A DNA stretch of 7,111 nucleotides, taken from a virus. A program made the translations under genes and the position numbers. Every line of letters begins with the position of its first letter. Position 1 is the stretch's first letter. Shown piece by piece: positions 1 through 7,111 of the stretch. The stretch is taken from positions 1-7,111 of IMG/VR virus record IMGVR_UViG_3300012630_000124; one strand, given 5' to 3'. The notes below the pieces were generated by a model. The model was not told the origin of the DNA, made no database searches, and saw only the letters and a program-made list of their open reading frames with translations.

Positions 1-55
1 CGCTGACCAAGGGAAGACAAAGCGCGTAAAAAATTAGGCTTAGCCATCCGCACAG
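1..55. repeat. Terminal redundancy: 1-55 is identical to 7057-7111, the overlap of a circular contig. The unique genome is 7,056 bp.
   Basis: Base-by-base comparison of the two ends gives 55/55 identity. The repeat lies inside an ORF that reads through the junction in frame. Confidence 0.95.
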
Positions 56-269
56 GTTGATAACGTGGAGAACCGCCAGATAAAGGGGTCGCAATTGCAG
101 GGACCGAAGCCCAGCCACGTTGCATCATTTGCTGTGAGTATGGAAGTGGGGCGTGCATACCTTTCGAATTAAATTTAACAGGTATTACAGCAACAACTTT
201 TGCGGGTTGACCAGCGAAAACAGAACAAGAAAAAATTACAAATAAAAATAAAAATAAAAATAAGCGCAT
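1..269 (-). CDS. gIII: N-terminal segment of the pIII-like adsorption/minor coat protein (signal peptide plus about 70 aa). It continues across the circular junction into 5682..7056, giving about 547 aa in total.
   Basis: Hand translation from ATG at 269-267 gives MRLFLFLFLFVIFSCSVFAGQPAKVVAVIPVKFNSKGMHAPLPYSQQMMQRGWASVPAIATPLSGGSPRYQPV. There are no stops, and it is in frame (216 nt = 72 codons) with the GTG at 53-51, which equals 7109-7107. SD AAGGAG lies 8 nt upstream. The N-terminus looks like a signal peptide with a VFA/G cleavage motif. Confidence 0.8.
   Translation of the reverse strand, partial: MRLFLFLFLFVIFSCSVFAGQPAKVVAVIPVKFNSKGMHAPLPYSQQMMQRGWASVPAIATPLSGGSPRYQPVRMAKPNFLRALSSLGQ
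240..263 (-). repeat. Four perfect tandem copies of the hexamer AAATAA (minus strand TTATTT), encoding (Leu-Phe)x4 in the pIII signal peptide
   Basis: Read directly: aaataa x4 at 240-245, 246-251, 252-257 and 258-263. The repeat is in frame with the CDS that starts at 269. Confidence 0.9.
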
Positions 270-596: not shown

Positions 597-719
597 TTAA
601 GGTCGGGATGACCGTTCGATAATCTGTTTGAACATGCGCAGGGTAATACCCGCACCAAATCCAACCAGCCAAAGAGACAATAAAAGACCGATAATTTTTG
701 CAGCGTCATTTATGTCCAT
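597..719 (-). CDS. gIX: pIX-like minor coat protein, 40 aa: MDINDAAKIIGLLLSLWLVGFGAGITLRMFKQIIERSSRP
   Basis: Hand translated; not in the ORF track. ATG at 719-717 with GAGG upstream, and it starts 3 nt after the gVII stop. It has a single hydrophobic helix. The ...GITLRMF...ERSS tail resembles M13 pIX ...SGITYFTRLMETSS (from memory). Confidence 0.7.
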   Translation of the reverse strand: MDINDAAKIIGLLLSLWLVGFGAGITLRMFKQIIERSSRP

Positions 720-889: not shown

Positions 890-1228
890 TTAAGCCTTAA
901 AAAGCTTAGTAATGTCATTACCGAGGTAATAAGTAACACCAGATGACTTAGCGCCTTGCCAAACTCGACCCCAAACGGGCAAAGTCAAAAGCTGACCTTC
1001 AAACTTTGCTAAATGGGCTGCTATACCTTGTTTAATCAGAGAATCAGAAATTACACATTCAAGTACTTCTGTTTTGGTTTCACCGTATTGGCCTACAGTG
1101 GCGACCTCTAAACCAGCAAACAAAGTTTGGCGGGTTTGGCCGTTTTGGTCTGGTTTGCCAAGAGCTATACGAGTGCCTAAATAAGTACCGGTAAGCGTCA
1201 AACCTTGGAATAAATTTAAATCTGACAT
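890..1228 (-). CDS. Putative ssDNA-binding protein (pV analogue), 112 aa
   Basis: It occupies the gV slot directly downstream of gII and upstream of gVII. SD AAGGAA lies 7 nt before the ATG. The size fits inovirus ssDNA-binding proteins. I recognised no sequence similarity to M13 pV, so the call is positional. Confidence 0.6.
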   Translation of the reverse strand: MSDLNLFQGLTLTGTYLGTRIALGKPDQNGQTRQTLFAGLEVATVGQYGETKTEVLECVISDSLIKQGIAAHLAKFEGQLLTLPVWGRVWQGAKSSGVTYYLGNDITKLFKA

Positions 1229-1238
1229 GTTGGTTTCC

Positions 1239-1622
1239 TTATGAAACTAAGCGCAGTTTTAAAAGCGCTGGGTTGAGGTTGTATTGCTGAGAAAGCGGTA
1301 AAGGTTCGACAAAATCAGCAGGGACTTGCTTCGAGAAATCGACGTTAATCATCTTGATAAACGGAACGACGTTTGACTGGTCGCCAGTCAAATTCATTAG
1401 TTGAGCCAGTGATAAACCAGCGTCGGTAAAATCATGCGTATAGCGGGACCAAGTGTTGCGAGGGTAGTTCGCTTTGGTACGTTCGTAGCCGTCGGTCATG
1501 ATGTTTCTATAAACACCATAGAGGCGGTTTGCTTTTGGATAACTAATTTTGCCGGAATCCGAAACACGGAAAAATTTAGCTTTAAGAGAATTTAAAACAG
1601 ATTCTTTGTCATACGTGTTCAT
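1239..1622 (-). CDS. gX: Candidate nested gene X: in-frame internal start giving the C-terminal 127 aa of pII
   Basis: Met296 (ATG at 1622-1620) sits in FEGATM-NTYD, which matches the Met that starts pX in M13 (FEGDSM-NIYD). An SD-like GAAGGTG lies 5-6 nt upstream. Confidence 0.5.
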   Translation of the reverse strand: MNTYDKESVLNSLKAKFFRVSDSGKISYPKANRLYGVYRNIMTDGYERTKANYPRNTWSRYTHDFTDAGLSLAQLMNLTGDQSNVVPFIKMINVDFSKQVPADFVEPLPLSQQYNLNPALLKLRLVS

Positions 1623-2507
1623 TGTTGCACCTTCAAAAGACTTGAAAACGTCTTTAAATGCTAAACCCCATAGGGTCGGAATTATTTGCGGATTGTCTAT
1701 CTGTAATTGTGGATCTGTGATTAAGCCAAGCGTTGCAGGCAAGCCGCGTTGAGAGAACCAATCTCGATAAATACGAGCCTCAAAACGAACGGCACCAGTG
1801 GCAAATAGCCTAACTTCTGGTCTAGTAATTTCTGCCAATTGGCGTCGGAAATGCTCATACTTGGTTTGAGCATATTTGCGGGTAAGCTTGTTAATTTGCG
1901 AATCGAGTTCAACGAGTTTTAAGTAAACTTTCTTAACGCAAACTTCAGATCCTTTATTGAAATACAAAGTGGTTTTGTATTCTTCATCGTACCAAGGGCG
2001 GGTTTGACCTATCTTGATGTTACGCATCAAATCTAAGCATTGTTGCGCTTGCTGTTGGTTCGGAACATGGGCGGTATAGGTCACATCTAAGTAATCAACT
2101 ACACCATGCTCCCAGTCTAAAAATTCTGTGAGATTGTGATCCCCAAAACAGAACGCCTCGACTACGGCCATGATGCAGAGGTTGAGATTGTCTGAACCGT
2201 AAACGTTGTGACCCTGTAAAAGCTTTGCAGGATTACCAACAATTTTAATGTAAGGAATACGCTTGAAATCTGTGCCGTTGATTATCTTAAAAGCTAAAGA
2301 AGCAAACGAAGAAGGCAGAGATTCGAACTTGTGGAATAACTGCGTAAAAGTAAACTTTTGGTTTTCAGTGTCCCAAGATACACAGCCGGATAAATCAAGT
2401 CCAAAGCGCTCCATTAATGTCCGGTCATCAATAAAGCAAGCACCAGAAGCACTTTCAACATAGTGCTTGCGTAAAAATGGGATGCTGATGGAAACCATAT
2501 CAATCAT
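1239..2507 (-). CDS. gII: Rolling-circle replication initiator (nickase), homologue of Ff gene II protein, 422 aa
   Basis: Motifs match M13 gpII as recalled: MIDM N-terminus; FESLPSSFASLAFKI (M13 FESLPTHYSGIAFKI); NPAKLLQGHNVYG (SPAKVLQGHNVFG); VRFEARI; FEGATMNTYD (FEGDSMNIYD); DSGKISYPKANRLYGVYR (PSGKTSFAKASRYFGFYR); PRNTWSRY; QLMNL...NVVPFIKMINVDFS. ATGA overlap with the upstream 77-aa ORF. Confidence 0.93.
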   Translation of the reverse strand: MIDMVSISIPFLRKHYVESASGACFIDDRTLMERFGLDLSGCVSWDTENQKFTFTQLFHKFESLPSSFASLAFKIINGTDFKRIPYIKIVGNPAKLLQGHNVYGSDNLNLCIMAVVEAFCFGDHNLTEFLDWEHGVVDYLDVTYTAHVPNQQQAQQCLDLMRNIKIGQTRPWYDEEYKTTLYFNKGSEVCVKKVYLKLVELDSQINKLTRKYAQTKYEHFRRQLAEITRPEVRLFATGAVRFEARIYRDWFSQRGLPATLGLITDPQLQIDNPQIIPTLWGLAFKDVFKSFEGATMNTYDKESVLNSLKAKFFRVSDSGKISYPKANRLYGVYRNIMTDGYERTKANYPRNTWSRYTHDFTDAGLSLAQLMNLTGDQSNVVPFIKMINVDFSKQVPADFVEPLPLSQQYNLNPALLKLRLVS

Positions 2508-2737
2508 AGTTTGCTACCATTGTCACCAGTGACGGCAGTTCTTAAAGATACTGCGCGACCAGTTCGAGAGCTTCGAAGATTACCTAAAACTAAATCGCGA
2601 TTTTCGCAACAAAGGGAAGCAGCAAGTTGAAAATCGGCTAAAACAGAAGTAGGGATCCAAAGCGTTATTTTTTCCAAACCTTGAGAACGTTTTGAAATTT
2701 CGTAACGTTGGTTGCGTGATAACTGAGAATTGCTCAT
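2504..2737 (-). CDS. Hypothetical small protein, 77 aa; possibly a small DNA-binding regulator
   Basis: GAGG lies 7 nt upstream of the ATG. ATGA overlaps at both ends (with the 139-aa ORF and with gII) indicate translational coupling. The segment RNQRYEISKRSQGLEKITLWIPTSVLADF fits the R-x-x-R...GL-x-x-h-x-h-W-h-P pattern I recall from small RepB/CopB-like and DUF3018 (MazE-like) regulators. That assignment is unverified. Confidence 0.6.
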   Translation of the reverse strand: MSNSQLSRNQRYEISKRSQGLEKITLWIPTSVLADFQLAASLCCENRDLVLGNLRSSRTGRAVSLRTAVTGDNGSKL

Positions 2738-3153
2738 GAACGAACCTCAGTAAATTCAACCAAGTTGCACAGCCAATCGCCAACAGCTGGAGAGAAAACC
2801 GAAGGATTAGCGCAGCCTTTGCTAACATCTAAATCATCCTTGCCACATACTGGGCAAGGAAGCTGACAACGCTCAGCGGAGCGGCTAACTTCGTTTGCCC
2901 GAGCGCTGTCAACTAAATCAACAACGATAAAAGAAAGGCCGTTTGATTGAAGTTGGTTTTCTATCGTTGATTTAAACTTGGATTGAGCAACTTGAATTTT
3001 TGCCGGAACAATTTTCTTGGCGTTAGCACCCAGAATTTCAAAGTTCGCGTATAGTGTCCATTGCTCGAAAATTGCGCGTACAGGTTCACGAGTTAACGTG
3101 AGTAAAATGCCAGCATTGGCAGCCTGTAAGGCTTTGATTGTGTTCATATCCAT
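2734..3153 (-). CDS. Hypothetical protein, 139 aa, with a Cys-rich C-terminal part (CQLPCPVCG...C...C); first gene downstream of the operator region
   Basis: Strong SD AGGAG lies 9 nt upstream of the ATG at 3153. ATGA overlap with the next ORF. No family recognised. Confidence 0.65.
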   Translation of the reverse strand: MDMNTIKALQAANAGILLTLTREPVRAIFEQWTLYANFEILGANAKKIVPAKIQVAQSKFKSTIENQLQSNGLSFIVVDLVDSARANEVSRSAERCQLPCPVCGKDDLDVSKGCANPSVFSPAVGDWLCNLVEFTEVRS

Positions 3154-3192
3154 GAGAAGCCGCTCCTGATATACTTTTTATAAAAACAAAGT

Positions 3193-3210
3193 GTATCCAA
3201 AATTGGATAC
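3193..3210. promoter_or_regulatory. Operator-like perfect 18-bp palindrome GTATCCAAAATTGGATAC
   Basis: Read directly. It lies in the 104-bp divergent intergenic region and shares the GTATCCA/TGGATAC half-sites with the second palindrome. Confidence 0.7.
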
Positions 3211-3220
3211 GGAATGAAAT

Positions 3221-3238
3221 GTATCCATAGTTGGATAC
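3221..3238. promoter_or_regulatory. Operator-like 18-bp palindrome GTATCCATAGTTGGATAC (7-bp arms)
   Basis: Read directly. Its centre is 28 bp from the first palindrome, and it lies 20 bp upstream of the repressor-like gene ATG. Confidence 0.7.
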
Positions 3239-3257
3239 AAAGTCAAGGGCGTTACGT

Positions 3258-3620
3258 ATGAATTTCAGCAACAAGCTAATTGACCAATACAAAGAATTTA
3301 TAAAAGCGAAATCAGATGCAGCAGCAGCAGCTGAGCTGCCACACATGACCAGAATGAATGTGAGCGCAATCAGAAAAGGTGAAAGAAGACTTACAGAAGA
3401 ACAAGCAGTATTTATTGCTGAAGCTTGCGCGCTCGACGTCGCACTAGTGCTTGTCGAACTAGCAGCTGAATCAGCCAAAAGCGAAAAAGCACAATCAGCA
3501 TGGAACGCATTAGCAAAAAAGCTTAAAGCCGCTTCAAGCTTATTGCTTTTGGCGGCTTTTCTTAGTATTTCAGGCACTTCAGGCTTAAATCAAAGCCAAC
3601 GCATCAAATATAGCCCATAA
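3258..3620 (+). CDS. HTH (Cro/CI/XRE-like) transcriptional repressor candidate, 120 aa, with a hydrophobic C-terminal segment
   Basis: It is the only plus-strand gene and is divergent from the replication/structural operon, like rstR in CTXphi or Pf4r. ATG at 3258 with AAGGG 8 nt upstream. The HTH-like stretch is SDAAAAAELPHMTRMNVSAIRKGERRLTEEQAVFIAEACALD. Confidence 0.75.
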   Translation: MNFSNKLIDQYKEFIKAKSDAAAAAELPHMTRMNVSAIRKGERRLTEEQAVFIAEACALDVALVLVELAAESAKSEKAQSAWNALAKKLKAASSLLLLAAFLSISGTSGLNQSQRIKYSP

Positions 3621-3639
3621 TGTGATTATTACGTTAAAT
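3610..3639. other. dif-like candidate XerC/XerD recombination site (possible attP)
   Basis: ATAGCCCATAA-TGTGATTA-TTACGTTAAAT. The right arm matches the conserved XerD arm TTATGTTAAAT at 10/11. The left arm ends in the conserved (G)C-CATAA of XerC arms. The spacer is 8 nt (dif has 6, cer has 8). No integrase gene is present. Confidence 0.4.
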
Positions 3640-3708
3640 AACAATAACTTAGTGAAAGCTTATTGGCTAAATATAGAGCAACAGCAAAAAAACAGCAACC
3701 CTTGAAAG

Positions 3709-3750
3709 TGTTCCAAAATGGAACAAGGTCCGGCTATTACTGTGCCGGAC
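3709..3750 (-). other. Plus-strand (viral-strand) origin of rolling-circle replication, f1-like core
   Basis: The minus strand reads AGTCCGGCacagtaataGCCGGACcttGTTCCATTTTGGAACA. The f1 ori core is AGTCCACgttctttaataGTGGACtcttGTTCCAAACTGGAACA. Both have a hairpin with a TAATA loop followed by the CTTGTTCCA...TGGAACA palindrome. An AT-rich stretch follows, like f1 domain B. Confidence 0.75.
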
Positions 3751-3793
3751 TACGGCAAGTAACTCAAAAACACGTGCGAAATAGATAAGTTAT

Positions 3794-3815
3794 AAAAAAA
3801 GCCCTTTCGGGCTTT
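3794..3815. terminator. Bidirectional intrinsic terminator hairpin AAAAAAAGCCCTTTCGGGCTTT
   Basis: The GCCC/GGGC stem (extendable to AAAGCCC/GGGCTTT) is flanked by A7 on one side and TTT on the other. On the minus strand it reads hairpin plus TTTTTTT, which would end the gI-ORF69 transcript. On the plus strand it is the first hairpin with trailing Ts after the repressor-like gene. Confidence 0.6.
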
Positions 3816-3828
3816 AGTTTGGCAGAGG

Positions 3829-3844
3829 GAAGCCCAAGGGCTTC
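3829..3844 (-). other. GC-rich stem-loop GAAGCCC-AA-GGGCTTC (candidate packaging signal or minus-strand origin element)
   Basis: Palindrome read directly, in the non-coding region downstream of the last morphogenesis-operon gene. Confidence 0.35.
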
Positions 3845-3869
3845 AAAAGAGTTACGCTCCGCTCCCATC

Positions 3870-3887
3870 AAGGGGCTAACGCCCCTT
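3870..3887 (-). other. GC-rich stem-loop AAGGGGC-TAAC-GCCCCTT (candidate packaging signal or minus-strand origin element)
   Basis: 7-bp stem with a 4-nt loop, read directly, 16 nt downstream of the ORF69 stop. Confidence 0.35.
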
Positions 3888-3902
3888 AATAATCCCCAGA
3901 AG

Positions 3903-4112
3903 TTAGCTAGAGAAATAGCGAATAATCGAAGTAATGATAAATAGTGAAATTAATACAAAATTGAAAAGGCTCAAGCGAAAAGGTTTGGGGTTTGTTTGAT
4001 GGGGTTTGTCATCGGTAGAGAGTTCACGCGGATCTTTATCTAATGTTTGATAGGTTTTAGGTTTAGTTTTTTGATGATGGTCTTTATACCAATCTCTATC
4101 AATCATACTCAT
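3903..4112 (-). CDS. Hypothetical tail-anchored small membrane protein, 69 aa, in the slot occupied by gIV in Ff
   Basis: SD AAGGGA lies 7 nt upstream of the ATG at 4112. The N-terminal 45 aa are charged and Pro/Lys/Asp/Thr-rich, and the C-terminus has the TM-like segment LSLFNFVLISLFIITSII. A hand count gives roughly one-third GC, visibly lower than neighbouring genes. Confidence 0.5.
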   Translation of the reverse strand: MSMIDRDWYKDHHQKTKPKTYQTLDKDPRELSTDDKPHQTNPKPFRLSLFNFVLISLFIITSIIRYFSS

Positions 4113-4123
4113 AAAATAGTCCC

Positions 4124-5359
4124 TTATGTTTTATCTTGTGGGAGAGGCGCAACGGCCGCGATCGATTGCGAAGATTCAGAATGTACGTAATGAGGGCGAC
4201 ATTTTACAAGCTTACTTTCATTTTTAAAAGTTATCGTTGCAGCACATGGGGCAAGATAAGTAACTTTGTAACCCAAATCAGTAGGATAAAAAGACCCATC
4301 ATCAGATTCAAAACAAAAATCCGCATGTGATTTACCAGTTGAGACAGTGCAAGTTATAACAACACTTTCTAAGGTTGACTCAAAATCAGATAGATTTGTT
4401 TGCTGATTTGATTGTTGCTCATCAACTTCATTTACTGGTGCTGGGGCCTGTGATGTCGGATTGGCAGTTGTTAGTTGCTGAGGTTCTTCAGCTTGGGAGA
4501 AATAGTACCAAGCAAAAAAGCAAAGGACAGCAGCGGGAAGTTGCCATCCAAATTTTAAAAGAGGATTTACTTTTTTTGGTACTGGTTGTTTTGCTGGCTC
4601 TATTTTCTGAGGTTCTTTTTTATCGAAGTAGTTAGCGGGCAAAACGGTAAACGATGCCCGCATGTCTATTTGCTTACCGTACTTATTAATAAATGTGTCT
4701 AAGATGAATTGCTGGCTAGTCTTATAGGCCGGATGCAATTCATAACATTTAAAAAACTCAGTCTTAGATAAATGATGACGATCCTTCTTTTTCCCGTTGT
4801 AAACATTAAGAACGTGAAAGCCATAAGGAGCAGTAATCTTAATAATTGGATTAATAAATAGATTCAAAATCTTTCCGAGAATCGGAGAGCTAAAAAGATT
4901 TTTACCGCTTCGACAATGCCAAATTTCCTGCAGAAGTGTTTCGCGCAATTGTTTGTCGACTGCATCAACATCTTGAGATAAAAGCCAAACCCGCCACCCA
5001 AGCTTACGAGATTGCACGAACCAAGATACAACGGCCAAGCGATCTTTATCATTCCATGAGCGAGAGTTAAACGAAGTTAAAAGTTCATCAATGACAATAA
5101 GACCAAAACGGCTTTCGTCGTAAGTGTCTGGGTTGTCTGGGTCTAATTCCGGATAAGCTTTTCCAAGCAATTCCAAATCAATAGAACGAGGAATATCAGG
5201 CAAACGAGTAATATAAGATTTCGCGTTAGGTGCTAAAACATCCGGCTTAATGTCCAAATTAGTAGCAACACGCAAACCCAATTGCAGATAAGTTTTAATT
5301 TCTCTAACCGCGATTTTTGACTTGCCGGAGCCGCGAACACCTTCAACGAAAATTGCCAT
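4124..5359 (-). CDS. gI: Assembly ATPase pI / Zot-family protein, 411 aa
   Basis: Walker A GVRGSGKS. VATNLDI; YDESRFGLIVIDE; NSRSWNDKDRLAVVSWFVQSRKLGWRVWLLSQDVDAVDKQ versus M13 pI NTRSWNDKERQPIIDWFLHARKLGWDIIFLVQDLSIVDKQ (from memory). TM segment WQLPAAVLCFFAWYYF. The C-terminus GYKVTYLAPC...KLVKC resembles M13 GYSLTYIDLC...EIVKC. TAATG overlap with gVI. Confidence 0.93.
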   Translation of the reverse strand: MAIFVEGVRGSGKSKIAVREIKTYLQLGLRVATNLDIKPDVLAPNAKSYITRLPDIPRSIDLELLGKAYPELDPDNPDTYDESRFGLIVIDELLTSFNSRSWNDKDRLAVVSWFVQSRKLGWRVWLLSQDVDAVDKQLRETLLQEIWHCRSGKNLFSSPILGKILNLFINPIIKITAPYGFHVLNVYNGKKKDRHHLSKTEFFKCYELHPAYKTSQQFILDTFINKYGKQIDMRASFTVLPANYFDKKEPQKIEPAKQPVPKKVNPLLKFGWQLPAAVLCFFAWYYFSQAEEPQQLTTANPTSQAPAPVNEVDEQQSNQQTNLSDFESTLESVVITCTVSTGKSHADFCFESDDGSFYPTDLGYKVTYLAPCAATITFKNESKLVKCRPHYVHSESSQSIAAVAPLPQDKT

Positions 5360-5682
5360 TATTTAGTGGTTACCTTAATTTTCAGCGCACGCTGATGGAA
5401 AGTAAAAAGCGCTGAAAGCGCATAGGCCGATGAAATAGCAGATATACAGACAGAAGCATTTGGCGGAACTAAAGAAAGACCCGCAGCTAAAAAACCGTTA
5501 CTAGGTGCGCTGGTTGCCAAAGATGAAAAAAGCTCTGTAAAACCAGTGGCTAAAGCAGTAACAGCAGCTACATAAACACCAATATAAATAACTGCTAAGC
5601 CTAGCCGCTGAGCGGCAAAGGCTACAAAGATACGAAAAAATGAAGTTAGACCAGTGACAATAAACGTAAGAAAAGCAGCCAT
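5359..5682 (-). CDS. gVI: pVI-like minor coat/termination protein, 107 aa, multi-pass hydrophobic
   Basis: It lies between gIII and gI with TAATG overlaps at both ends. It is strongly hydrophobic. LSLVPPNASVCISAISSAYALSALFTF resembles M13 pVI LILPSNALPCFYVILSVKAAIFIF (from memory). Confidence 0.8.
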   Translation of the reverse strand: MAAFLTFIVTGLTSFFRIFVAFAAQRLGLAVIYIGVYVAAVTALATGFTELFSSLATSAPSNGFLAAGLSLVPPNASVCISAISSAYALSALFTFHQRALKIKVTTK

Positions 5683-7111
5683 TATGGGGTTACCTCAAGT
5701 GTGCGATGGAAGATACGGAAACAAAGTAACAGCGTGTAAATTGATAAAAGCCAACTCACAACAGGTTGACCCCAATCATTATAAGGGGGGCAATGTTGGT
5801 CAACAGTGATGGTTTTTGGCTCACCTCGAATAGATACAGAGAGATTAAAACCGCGACAGCCACCACTAGTTGGTAAGGTTACAAAATCCAAAAGCTTTGG
5901 TTGACCGTTAAAATTAGGTAACGGTGATTCGATGAAATCAGTAAGTTTTTGGTGCTCTTGGGTGAGCTTATCAACTTCAGTTTGTACACTCTGACCTTGC
6001 ACGGCCTGATTTCCCCAGCTGTTATTTGAAGCCTCATATTGAGATTTGGTTAGACCGGGGAATTTAGACCAATCAATAGGAGTTTCTTCTTTTGGTGGTG
6101 CGTCAGGTGTAATAGTTTGATTAGTGTATAAATCAACAAAGGTACTGCCTTCGTGCCAGTTGTTAATCTGGACTAATAAATTAGGCATCATTTCTGCTGG
6201 TACATAATTAGGGGCGTTTGGGTTGGTATGCTGCACAGTACCAGTAGCAATAGCTTCAGCAGCATCAGCAAAAGAGGGGCTAACAGGGTCAAAAGTCGGA
6301 TTATCAAATAAATCCGGATAAGGTGCGCCAGTCTCCCAATCAACAAAATCATCTAGACCAATATCAGCATCAATCAAAGGATTAGGGTTTTTTGCATATT
6401 GTTCATTTAGCCAAGTCTCATCAATCGCAGAAACTCGTATGTTATTAGTTGGCCGGAAGCACGAATGAGCATTATTAATGAATAAAGGGCCATTGGTGTA
6501 ATCTGGATTTGCATCCGGTGGACAAATAAAACCTTCTTGATTTTGACCAAGCCCAACAGAACCAGCGACAAACTGAGTGCCAACAGAAGGCGCGGAAGTA
6601 TTACAAACAGGCTGACCAGATGAATTAGCAAAACAAGTAGTTTGGACAGCAGTAGAGACAATTTTATAACCGATAGTGGCACTAGATAAATTAATAGTAT
6701 TAATGGACTCAAACGAGCGATTAATAGTGAGCGTGATATTGGGTGCCATTTCAATATTTTCAGAAGCTTTAGGCAATTGAATTTGTGAAGATACGGATTC
6801 AGAGGCTTTAGAAACACAATCAGCGAACGTAGTACCAGTGAAAGCGCCTAAGTGAGTATCAGAAGGATAATAAGCATTACAAGTAACGAAAGTTTGCGGT
6901 TTAGCGGGGACATGATCAGTAAAATCTATTTCACCTGGTTGCGATGCATCTTCAGTATCAAAGCACAGAGAAGTAAACAATTGAGAAGTACAATTTGCCT
7001 CATAAGCACCATAAGCAATCAAAGCAGCTTTACCAGCTGGAGTCATATTAGCGGCACGCTGACCAAGGGAAGACAAAGCGCGTAAAAAATTAGGCTTAGC
7101 CATCCGCACAG
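5682..7111 (-). CDS. gIII: Main body of the pIII-like adsorption/minor coat protein. The ORF-track start at 7109 is an artefact of linearisation.
   Basis: This is the largest ORF and sits immediately after the major coat gene and terminator, as gIII does in Ff. It has several Cys pairs. The C-terminal hydrophobic anchor VVSWLLSIYTLLLCFRIF is preceded by C...C, like the pIII C-domain. Its stop overlaps the gVI start (TAATG at 5684-5680). Confidence 0.85.
   Translation of the reverse strand, partial: VRMAKPNFLRALSSLGQRAANMTPAGKAALIAYGAYEANCTSQLFTSLCFDTEDASQPGEIDFTDHVPAKPQTFVTCNAYYPSDTHLGAFTGTTFADCVSKASESVSSQIQLPKASENIEMAPNITLTINRSFESINTINLSSATIGYKIVSTAVQTTCFANSSGQPVCNTSAPSVGTQFVAGSVGLGQNQEGFICPPDANPDYTNGPLFINNAHSCFRPTNNIRVSAIDETWLNEQYAKNPNPLIDADIGLDDFVDWETGAPYPDLFDNPTFDPVSPSFADAAEAIATGTVQHTNPNAPNYVPAEMMPNLLVQINNWHEGSTFVDLYTNQTITPDAPPKEETPIDWSKFPGLTKSQYEASNNSWGNQAVQGQSVQTEVDKLTQEHQKLTDFIESPLPNFNGQPKLLDFVTLPTSGGCRGFNLSVSIRGEPKTITVDQHCPPYNDWGQPVVSWLLSIYTLLLCFRIFHRTLEVTP
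7057..7111. repeat. Second copy of the 55-nt terminal redundancy (duplicate of 1-55)
   Basis: Identical to 1-55. 55 is a common de Bruijn assembler k-mer length. Confidence 0.95.

Follow-up and report, generated by a model that had tools for sequence, protein, structure and literature searches.

A secretin-less Inoviridae-like genome with a dif-like attachment site and a plausible route of export through a host secretin

The 7,111-nt stretch of viral DNA analysed here (hereafter the window) is in our estimate, which we put at roughly three chances in four for the reading as a whole, the complete genome of a temperate filamentous phage (Inoviridae-like) that infects Rheinheimera-like/Alteromonadales-like marine gammaproteobacteria, carries no secretin gene of its own, would export its virions through a secretin of the host and would enter lysogeny by means of the host recombinases XerC/XerD.

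Genome organization and phage class

The two ends of the window overlap by 55 nt (positions 1-55 identical to 7057-7111), so that it is a circular assembly of 7,056 nt per unit; the minus strand encodes all the core genes, in the order that is classical for inoviruses (Table 1). Its gene content is that of a filamentous phage (Tubulavirales / Inoviridae sensu lato), as it comprises a pI/Zot-type morphogenesis ATPase, the rolling-circle initiator pII, pV and a major coat protein that is short and has a signal peptide, all on a small circle. Gene III occupies the same place as in Ff (between gVIII and gVI), and its product (pIII, 547 aa), which is preceded by an AAGGAG Shine-Dalgarno sequence and begins with the signal peptide MRLFLFLFLFVIFSCSVFA, matched neither a Pfam family (E <= 1) nor the pIV profile described below. 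The list of open reading frames shows this gene truncated and with a false GTG start, because the ends of the window cut through it.

Table 1. Features of the window (positions on the 7,111-nt sequence; minus-strand genes are mostly given from their 5' end)
Feature	Coordinates	Strand	Evidence and remarks
Gene III (receptor-binding minor coat protein), 5' part	1..269	-	start codon at 269
Major coat protein (pVIII)	ends at 347	-	PHROG 1646 'major coat protein'
40-aa ORF, pVII/pIX position	719..597	-	
pV	1228..890	-	Pfam Putative_G5P; ssDNA-binding protein
pII	2507..1239	-	Pfam Phage_CRI and G2P_X_C; 422 aa
77-aa ORF	2504-2737	-	PHROG 11804 (unknown function), E 1.5e-20; between operator region and pII
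139-aa ORF	2734-3153	-	Cys cluster (CQLPCPVCGKDD...C), no family match; between operator region and pII
Repressor-like regulator	3231..3620	+	129 aa; Pfam DUF3693, E 2e-5; PHROG 638 'transcriptional regulator', E 3.5e-24
dif-like attP	3610..3639	-	ATTTAACGTAA (XerD-type arm), TAATCACA, TTATGGGCTAT (XerC-type arm)
Hairpin-rich intergenic region	3660..3902	-	between 69-aa ORF and attP
Stem-loops	~3888..3869, 3844..3829, 3815..3798, 3762..3737, 3725..3707	-	
69-aa small membrane protein	4112..3903	-	position of gene IV in Ff
pI (gene I)	5359..4124	-	Pfam Zot, PHROG 1675; 411 aa
pVI	5682..5359	-	Pfam DUF5455
Gene III, distal part	5682..7111	-	ORF spans the window ends and finishes at 5682

The repressor-like gene is divergent from the replication and morphogenesis genes and forms the low-side boundary of the interval 3621-4123. 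Two near-identical palindromes, GTATCCAA-AA-TTGGATAC (3192-3210) and GTATCCA-TAGT-TGGATAC (3221-3239), are found in the 78-nt gap that separates this gene from the divergent 139-aa ORF, and they are likely to be operator sites; a weaker third copy is present at 3712-3728, within the intergenic region. PSB15, known from Xanthomonas phages (10.1101/2024.03.19.585677), was weighed as a counterpart of the 69-aa or the 139-aa ORF and dismissed, the WAGFXF motif and DUF3653 being absent. The whole window gave no megablast match among deposited phages, its Rfam and tRNA scans returned nothing, and the Pfam scan of 68 frames (see below) detected no lysis genes.

Absence of a secretin gene

The original prediction singled out the interval 3621-4123, which corresponds exactly to the space between the stop codons of pI and the repressor-like gene, and described gene I as followed only by a 69-aa ORF and non-coding DNA. 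This layout was confirmed: past the 69-aa ORF there are ~280 nt without a plausible ORF, up to the repressor-like stop. Equally correct was the statement that no unassigned ORF is long enough for a secretin, since the only frames longer than 167 aa on the circularised sequence are those of pIII, pII and pI (547, 422 and 411 aa, respectively).

The secretin-domain search of the circle that had been proposed as a check was performed with two kinds of models, neither of which detected a secretin. The Pfam Secretin family found no match at E <= 1 in any stop-to-stop frame of 40 aa or more (68 frames from both strands, searched one by one), while the same scan recovered Zot, Phage_CRI, G2P_X_C, G5P, DUF5455 and DUF3693; it was also without a match in the three stop-masked minus-strand frames, a less sensitive scan that missed DUF5455 in pVI. 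The second model was a profile made of the M13, VFJ and Vaf1 pIV sequences. Searched without any filter against frames of 30 aa or more, with a cutoff of E <= 10, it recovered its three controls and the secretin of a distant relative (locus L028) and found nothing in the window. The prediction thus stood as far as the missing secretin is concerned; it overlooked that the 69-aa ORF in the same interval is a conserved gene and that the non-coding DNA is bordered by a dif-like attP.

Two marks of the Ff group, a phage-encoded pIV directly downstream of gene I and a close sequence relationship to M13/f1/fd, are both missing (no megablast match; pI 26-27% identical), and what the window presents is a complete and conserved genome without a secretin gene, as is characteristic of the secretin-less inoviruses represented by CTXphi (EpsD) and MDA (PilQ).

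Relatives and putative hosts

Relatives in bacteria were sought by scanning one genome per bacterial species, which yielded 18 loci with a pI relative. No secretin is encoded within 10 kb of pI in 17 of the 18, and further metagenomic relatives are alike in this respect; the exception is the most distant of all, L028 (Candidatus Desulfobacillus), where a secretin follows pI. The best host indication is the MAG 'Gammaproteobacteria bacterium UWPOB_PARA1' (pI 88% identical), after which come two Rheinheimera MAGs (pI 70-71% identical) and, as more distant pI relatives, loci of Alteromonadaceae, Pseudoalteromonas, Colwellia and Thalassotalea (36-42% in the Pseudoalteromonas/Colwellia prophages).

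The three deposited phages nearest by pI (VFJ, Vaf1 and Ff) have pIV immediately after pI, and the contig could on this ground be taken for a deletion derivative, either a defective phage or a mini-phage, of some longer gene IV-bearing phage, a possibility already raised with the original prediction. We consider it effectively refuted. The identical 7-kb circle was assembled independently from another sample and sequencing run (L009, 100% identical over 7,086 nt), and many pI relatives are found on contigs of ~7 kb. The order pI, small ORF, non-coding DNA and repressor was always encountered in the loci that we read (L004-L015, pI 54-88%), including prophages with both ends intact, and in the integrated copies the prophage border follows immediately upon the small ORF and the intergenic region. 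The whole clade is without pIV, no secretin remnant surfaced even at E <= 10, and the small ORF that sits at the very position of gene IV is itself conserved.

It is also conceivable, if quite improbable, that the phage is a satellite with regard to export and uses pIV supplied by a filamentous helper phage in the same cell in place of a chromosomal host secretin, seeing that satellite filamentous elements are known in Vibrio (e.g., TLCphi, PMC9226527) and that the sequence gives no sign of which secretin is used. Unlike the known satellites, the window has a full set of replication, coat and pI genes, no second inovirus or secretin was found beside any integrated copy, and the clade is widespread in different hosts.

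Morphogenesis protein pI

Matching Pfam Zot (E 4.8e-16), pI aligns with PHROG 1675 ('protein I of M13', E 1.5e-53) from residue 4 to 387, across positions 5-353 of the 353 in the profile, and it also matches the generic Zot-like PHROG 197 (E 1.6e-17) and, with its C-terminal part, the 'CTXphi Zot-like toxin' family PHROG 1041 (E 5.6e-7); its similarity to the M13 family thus exceeds that to the generic Zot-like ones. The BLASTP alignment with M13 pI (26% identity, residues 1-387, E 3e-35) pairs GYKVTYLAPC...KLVKC of the window with GYSLTYIDLC...EIVKC (GYxxTY...C...VKC), so that the resemblance of the two C-termini, as originally asserted, is borne out, and both cysteines of the motif are invariant in the clade of the window, Ff, VFJ and Vaf1.

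Among deposited phages, 33 records align with pI over at least 80% of its length; they are Ff, VFJ and Vaf1, and all of them have pIV adjoining pI (11 Vibrio records match pI, as many as match M13 pIV). Ff (M13/f1/fd, Inovirus), fs2/VFJ (Saetivirus) and Vaf1 share with the window phage the gene order II-V-(VII/IX)-VIII-III-VI-I, a pII of the CRI-type replication proteins and a pI that is homologous end to end, with two invariant cysteines in the periplasmic C-domain. They differ from it in having gene IV directly after gene I, and in a pI that is only 26-29% identical and is devoid of the two additional conserved cysteines and the C-terminal extension of the window protein; moreover, Ff has neither the repressor module nor the dif-like attP that the window phage possesses. 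The annotated start of VFJ orf361 (pI; L002, 4925-5995) is at 4991, while similarity to pI begins at 4925 and the annotated protein is without the Walker A region in the alignment; the deposited start is therefore probably too far downstream, or a frameshift is present.

The architecture of pI consists of an N-terminal P-loop domain, a transmembrane helix (~273-288), a periplasmic beta-domain (~330-387) and a C-terminal extension of ~24 aa. In the AlphaFold2 model (mean pLDDT 84) the C-domain (~330-387) is predicted with a pLDDT of 91-95 and the tail as disordered. Foldseek with the full model returned the N-domain of Neisseria Zot (2r2a) as the best match, in results dominated by the N-terminal P-loop domain, and tblastn with the C-domain alone found nothing among deposited phages. 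The single match of a PDB sequence search with the pI profile, a designed coiled-coil, was discarded as spurious. A pXI-like internal start at Met233 was considered and not adopted, as this methionine is not invariant in the clade and is preceded only by a weak GGTAAG.

Whereas the pI proteins of M13, VFJ and Vaf1 end at the last invariant cysteine, or one residue past it, those of all pIV-less clade members (22/22) run on with C-x-P-x-Y-V-x-S-E and a variable tail (residues ~388-411 in the window, 4124-4200). Two further cysteines (C337 and C349) are nearly invariant in the clade and missing from the pI of M13, VFJ and Vaf1. That the tail and the extra cysteines bear on the choice of secretin is speculation. 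Given the 26-29% identity and the match to PHROG 1041, the fold of the pI C-domain is not diagnostic of a phage-encoded partner.

Small membrane protein and intergenic region

The 69-aa ORF is a real, conserved and clade-restricted gene, as judged by sequence comparison. A Shine-Dalgarno-like AAGGGA stands 7 nt upstream of its ATG, homologues come immediately behind pI in each relative whose pI is 54% identical or more, and 8 of the 11 nucleotide differences between the window and L011 are at third codon positions. The protein carries the N-terminal motif M-x-x-x-DRDWYKDHHQ...TLDKDPRE (DRDWYK(D/E)HHQ in the homologues) and a C-terminal hydrophobic helix, and its predicted structure comprises a helix (3-13), a disordered linker and one transmembrane helix (45-68). 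It has no Pfam family, matches PHROG 13107 (E 2e-5), gave nothing by tblastn against deposited phages and belongs to a tiny family, of which 1.84 billion proteins, searched exhaustively, yielded no more than 6 cluster representatives. Such a protein cannot form an outer-membrane pore.

Its place immediately downstream of pI throughout the relatives of 54% pI identity and above, its conserved sequence and the C-x-P-x-Y-V-x-S-E extension of the pIV-less pI proteins invite the thought that the small protein and the extension act together as a dedicated adaptor that couples pI to the host secretin. We regard such an adaptor as unlikely. The single transmembrane helix lies at the extreme C-terminus with ~1-3 residues beyond it, leaving almost nothing in the periplasm if the N-terminus is cytoplasmic; disorder is predicted for the pI tail, homology offers no clue to what the small protein does, and the DRDWY ORF is missing from the Pseudoalteromonas/Colwellia branch, which is equally pIV-less. 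The role that we propose for it is that of an accessory inner-membrane factor.

The intergenic region past the small ORF is almost identical in L011 and L008. As single-stranded DNA (packaged-sense strand) it folds with a z-score of -3.6, and none of 200 shuffled sequences folds as well. One of its stem-loops (3815..3798) is followed by a T-run and is terminator-like, and the region probably brings the morphogenesis operon to its end; a packaging signal or a replication origin is likely to be located there as well, if Ff is taken as the model.

Integration at dif-type sites

A search of the window with the E. coli dif consensus (up to 3 mismatches) returned nothing, and the attachment site was recognized through prophage junctions. 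The prophages of L005, L008, L013 and L015 are bounded on one side by a host-type site, ATTTAACATAA-TATACA-TTATGGG(C/A)TAT, and on the other by a phage-type site whose spacer measures 8 nt. The latter has a single exact match in the window, where it extends into the 3' end of the repressor-like gene at the low edge of 3621-4123. At the left junction of L008, whose prophage is 84-86% identical, the site reads ATTTAACATAA-TATACA-TTATGGGCTAT and agrees, in its XerD arm and spacer, with the dif consensus of gammaproteobacteria; at the right junction the phage-type site is followed by host DNA. The L011 prophage occupies the same host insertion position as that of L008. On account of the consensus match, the host-type site may be considered a functional chromosomal dif.

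No integrase or recombinase family was found in any frame by the Pfam scan, and this, together with the host-type and phage-type flanking sites, argues for XerCD-mediated integration of the VGJphi type, for which a single dif-like attP and XerC-dependent integration have been described (PMC4246890). The window has just such a site, with XerC- and XerD-type arms, and the prophages lie at a host dif-type site between host-type and phage-type flanks, as in IMEX of the VGJphi type. The spacer is 6 nt in the host-type site (attL) and 8 nt in the phage-type site (attR), and the stretch common to both is CATTATGGG.TAT; with identity confined to the XerC side, a strand exchange by XerC only is implied, as for VGJphi/CTXphi. 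Like the vibriophages of the VGJphi/CTXphi type (IMEX), the window phage has no integrase and no secretin gene, the integrated copy in its relatives is bordered, at the host dif, by one site of the host type and one of the phage type, and it shares with VGJphi the single dif-like attP; it differs from them in its host group (Rheinheimera-like, Alteromonadales-like) and, from VGJphi, in the attP itself (8-nt spacer vs a 29-bp site).

An 843-aa S8 peptidase is encoded in the host DNA beside the prophage in both L008 (7499-13774) and L015 (12064-14595), which suggests that the dif-type site has the same chromosomal neighbourhood in different hosts. In L008 the peptidase is followed by a curli export cluster (CsgE/F/G); as CsgG is not a secretin, we treated its vicinity to the prophage as coincidental. 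The host flank of L011 contains, at ~7200-7300 and ~300 nt past the prophage end, a perfect tandem array of ~12 copies of the 8-nt unit GCTTCGTT. The window has no counterpart of the accessory cytosine DNA methylase gene (PF00145; L005 5170-6096) of the L005 prophage (chromosome OW818678.1; pI 71% identical), which has the regulatory genes on one side and a shorter pII (343 aa) on the other.

Virion export

Filamentous phages without pIV are frequent, and a host secretin is used in such cases (PMC10011098). 'The majority of filamentous vibriophages' have no secretin gene and are presumed to rely on that of the host (PMC7412436), Pf4 has no G4P homologue (PMC7549136), and for CTXphi the use of a host secretin has been shown (Davis et al. 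2000, as cited in PMC10011098). Pseudoalteromonas phage f327, along with other inoviruses of marine Alteromonadales, resembles the window phage in its marine gammaproteobacterial host and small genome; its assembly module 'contains only ORF448' (PMC4817708), that is, a pI homologue alone, as in the window. f327 was not among the pI matches in the phage collection, and the Pseudoalteromonas/Colwellia branch forms the distant part of the pI clade to which the window belongs.

The original prediction went on to propose that a host secretin is hijacked, and this part appears reasonable: the host is Gram-negative, the inner-membrane and virion genes form a complete set, and an outer-membrane channel is lacking. 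A Gram-negative host demands such a channel and the phage supplies the ATPase and no channel, which makes a host secretin the most economical reading, so that release of the virions through it is plausible from the gene content. Less can be said for the surprise voiced at finding no pIV 'despite an Ff-like pI'. It has some justification in that the pI-wide matches (Ff, VFJ and Vaf1) all carry pIV, but the identity amounts to only 26-29% and pIV is often absent according to the literature, which leaves it weakly justified. Because the closest deposited phages encode pIV, the Ff-type C-domain of pI has so far been shown to work only with a phage secretin.

We reason that the virions would be assembled at the inner membrane by pI and would leave the cell via a host secretin (GspD of the T2SS, PilQ of the type IV pilus or one of the MSHA type). 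The hosts of the clade presumably carry GspD or PilQ. The periplasmic domain of pI would dock onto the host secretin, just as CTXphi makes use of EpsD and as pI/pXI in Ff align with pIV, potentially through its N0 domain (PMC10175506). The hairpin-rich region past the small ORF would mark the end of the operon and probably carry packaging/origin signals, and lysogeny would proceed via host XerC/XerD at dif, as in VGJphi. Export that dispenses with any secretin, by lysis, vesicles or another route across the outer membrane, we hold to be barely credible, as lysis genes are missing and the studied Gram-negative inoviruses all extrude through a secretin, be it phage- or host-encoded (PMC10011098, PMC7412436).

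Significance

The absence of a secretin gene is an ordinary and common condition of inoviruses and makes the window phage no exception among them, while the host-secretin route is a standard textbook inference that is already applied in the field; since secretin-less filamentous phages are common, the headline claim in itself matters little. Of more use is the delimitation of an uncultured clade of XerCD-integrating inoviruses, in a host group (Rheinheimera-like, Alteromonadales-like) with few studied examples, whose clear attP/dif pair can serve for calling prophage borders. The conserved, clade-restricted small membrane protein beside pI and the pI tail are the only leads of some novelty, and the tail extension and the two extra cysteines provide a concrete difference between the periplasmic domains of pIV-associated and pIV-less pI.

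It is a long shot that this marine inovirus clade kept the Ff-type periplasmic domain of pI and re-targeted it to a host secretin by way of the extension, the extra disulfide pair and possibly the DRDWY protein. If true, the pIV-bearing and pIV-less forms of pI would constitute a natural matched pair for mapping the specificity between pI and secretins.
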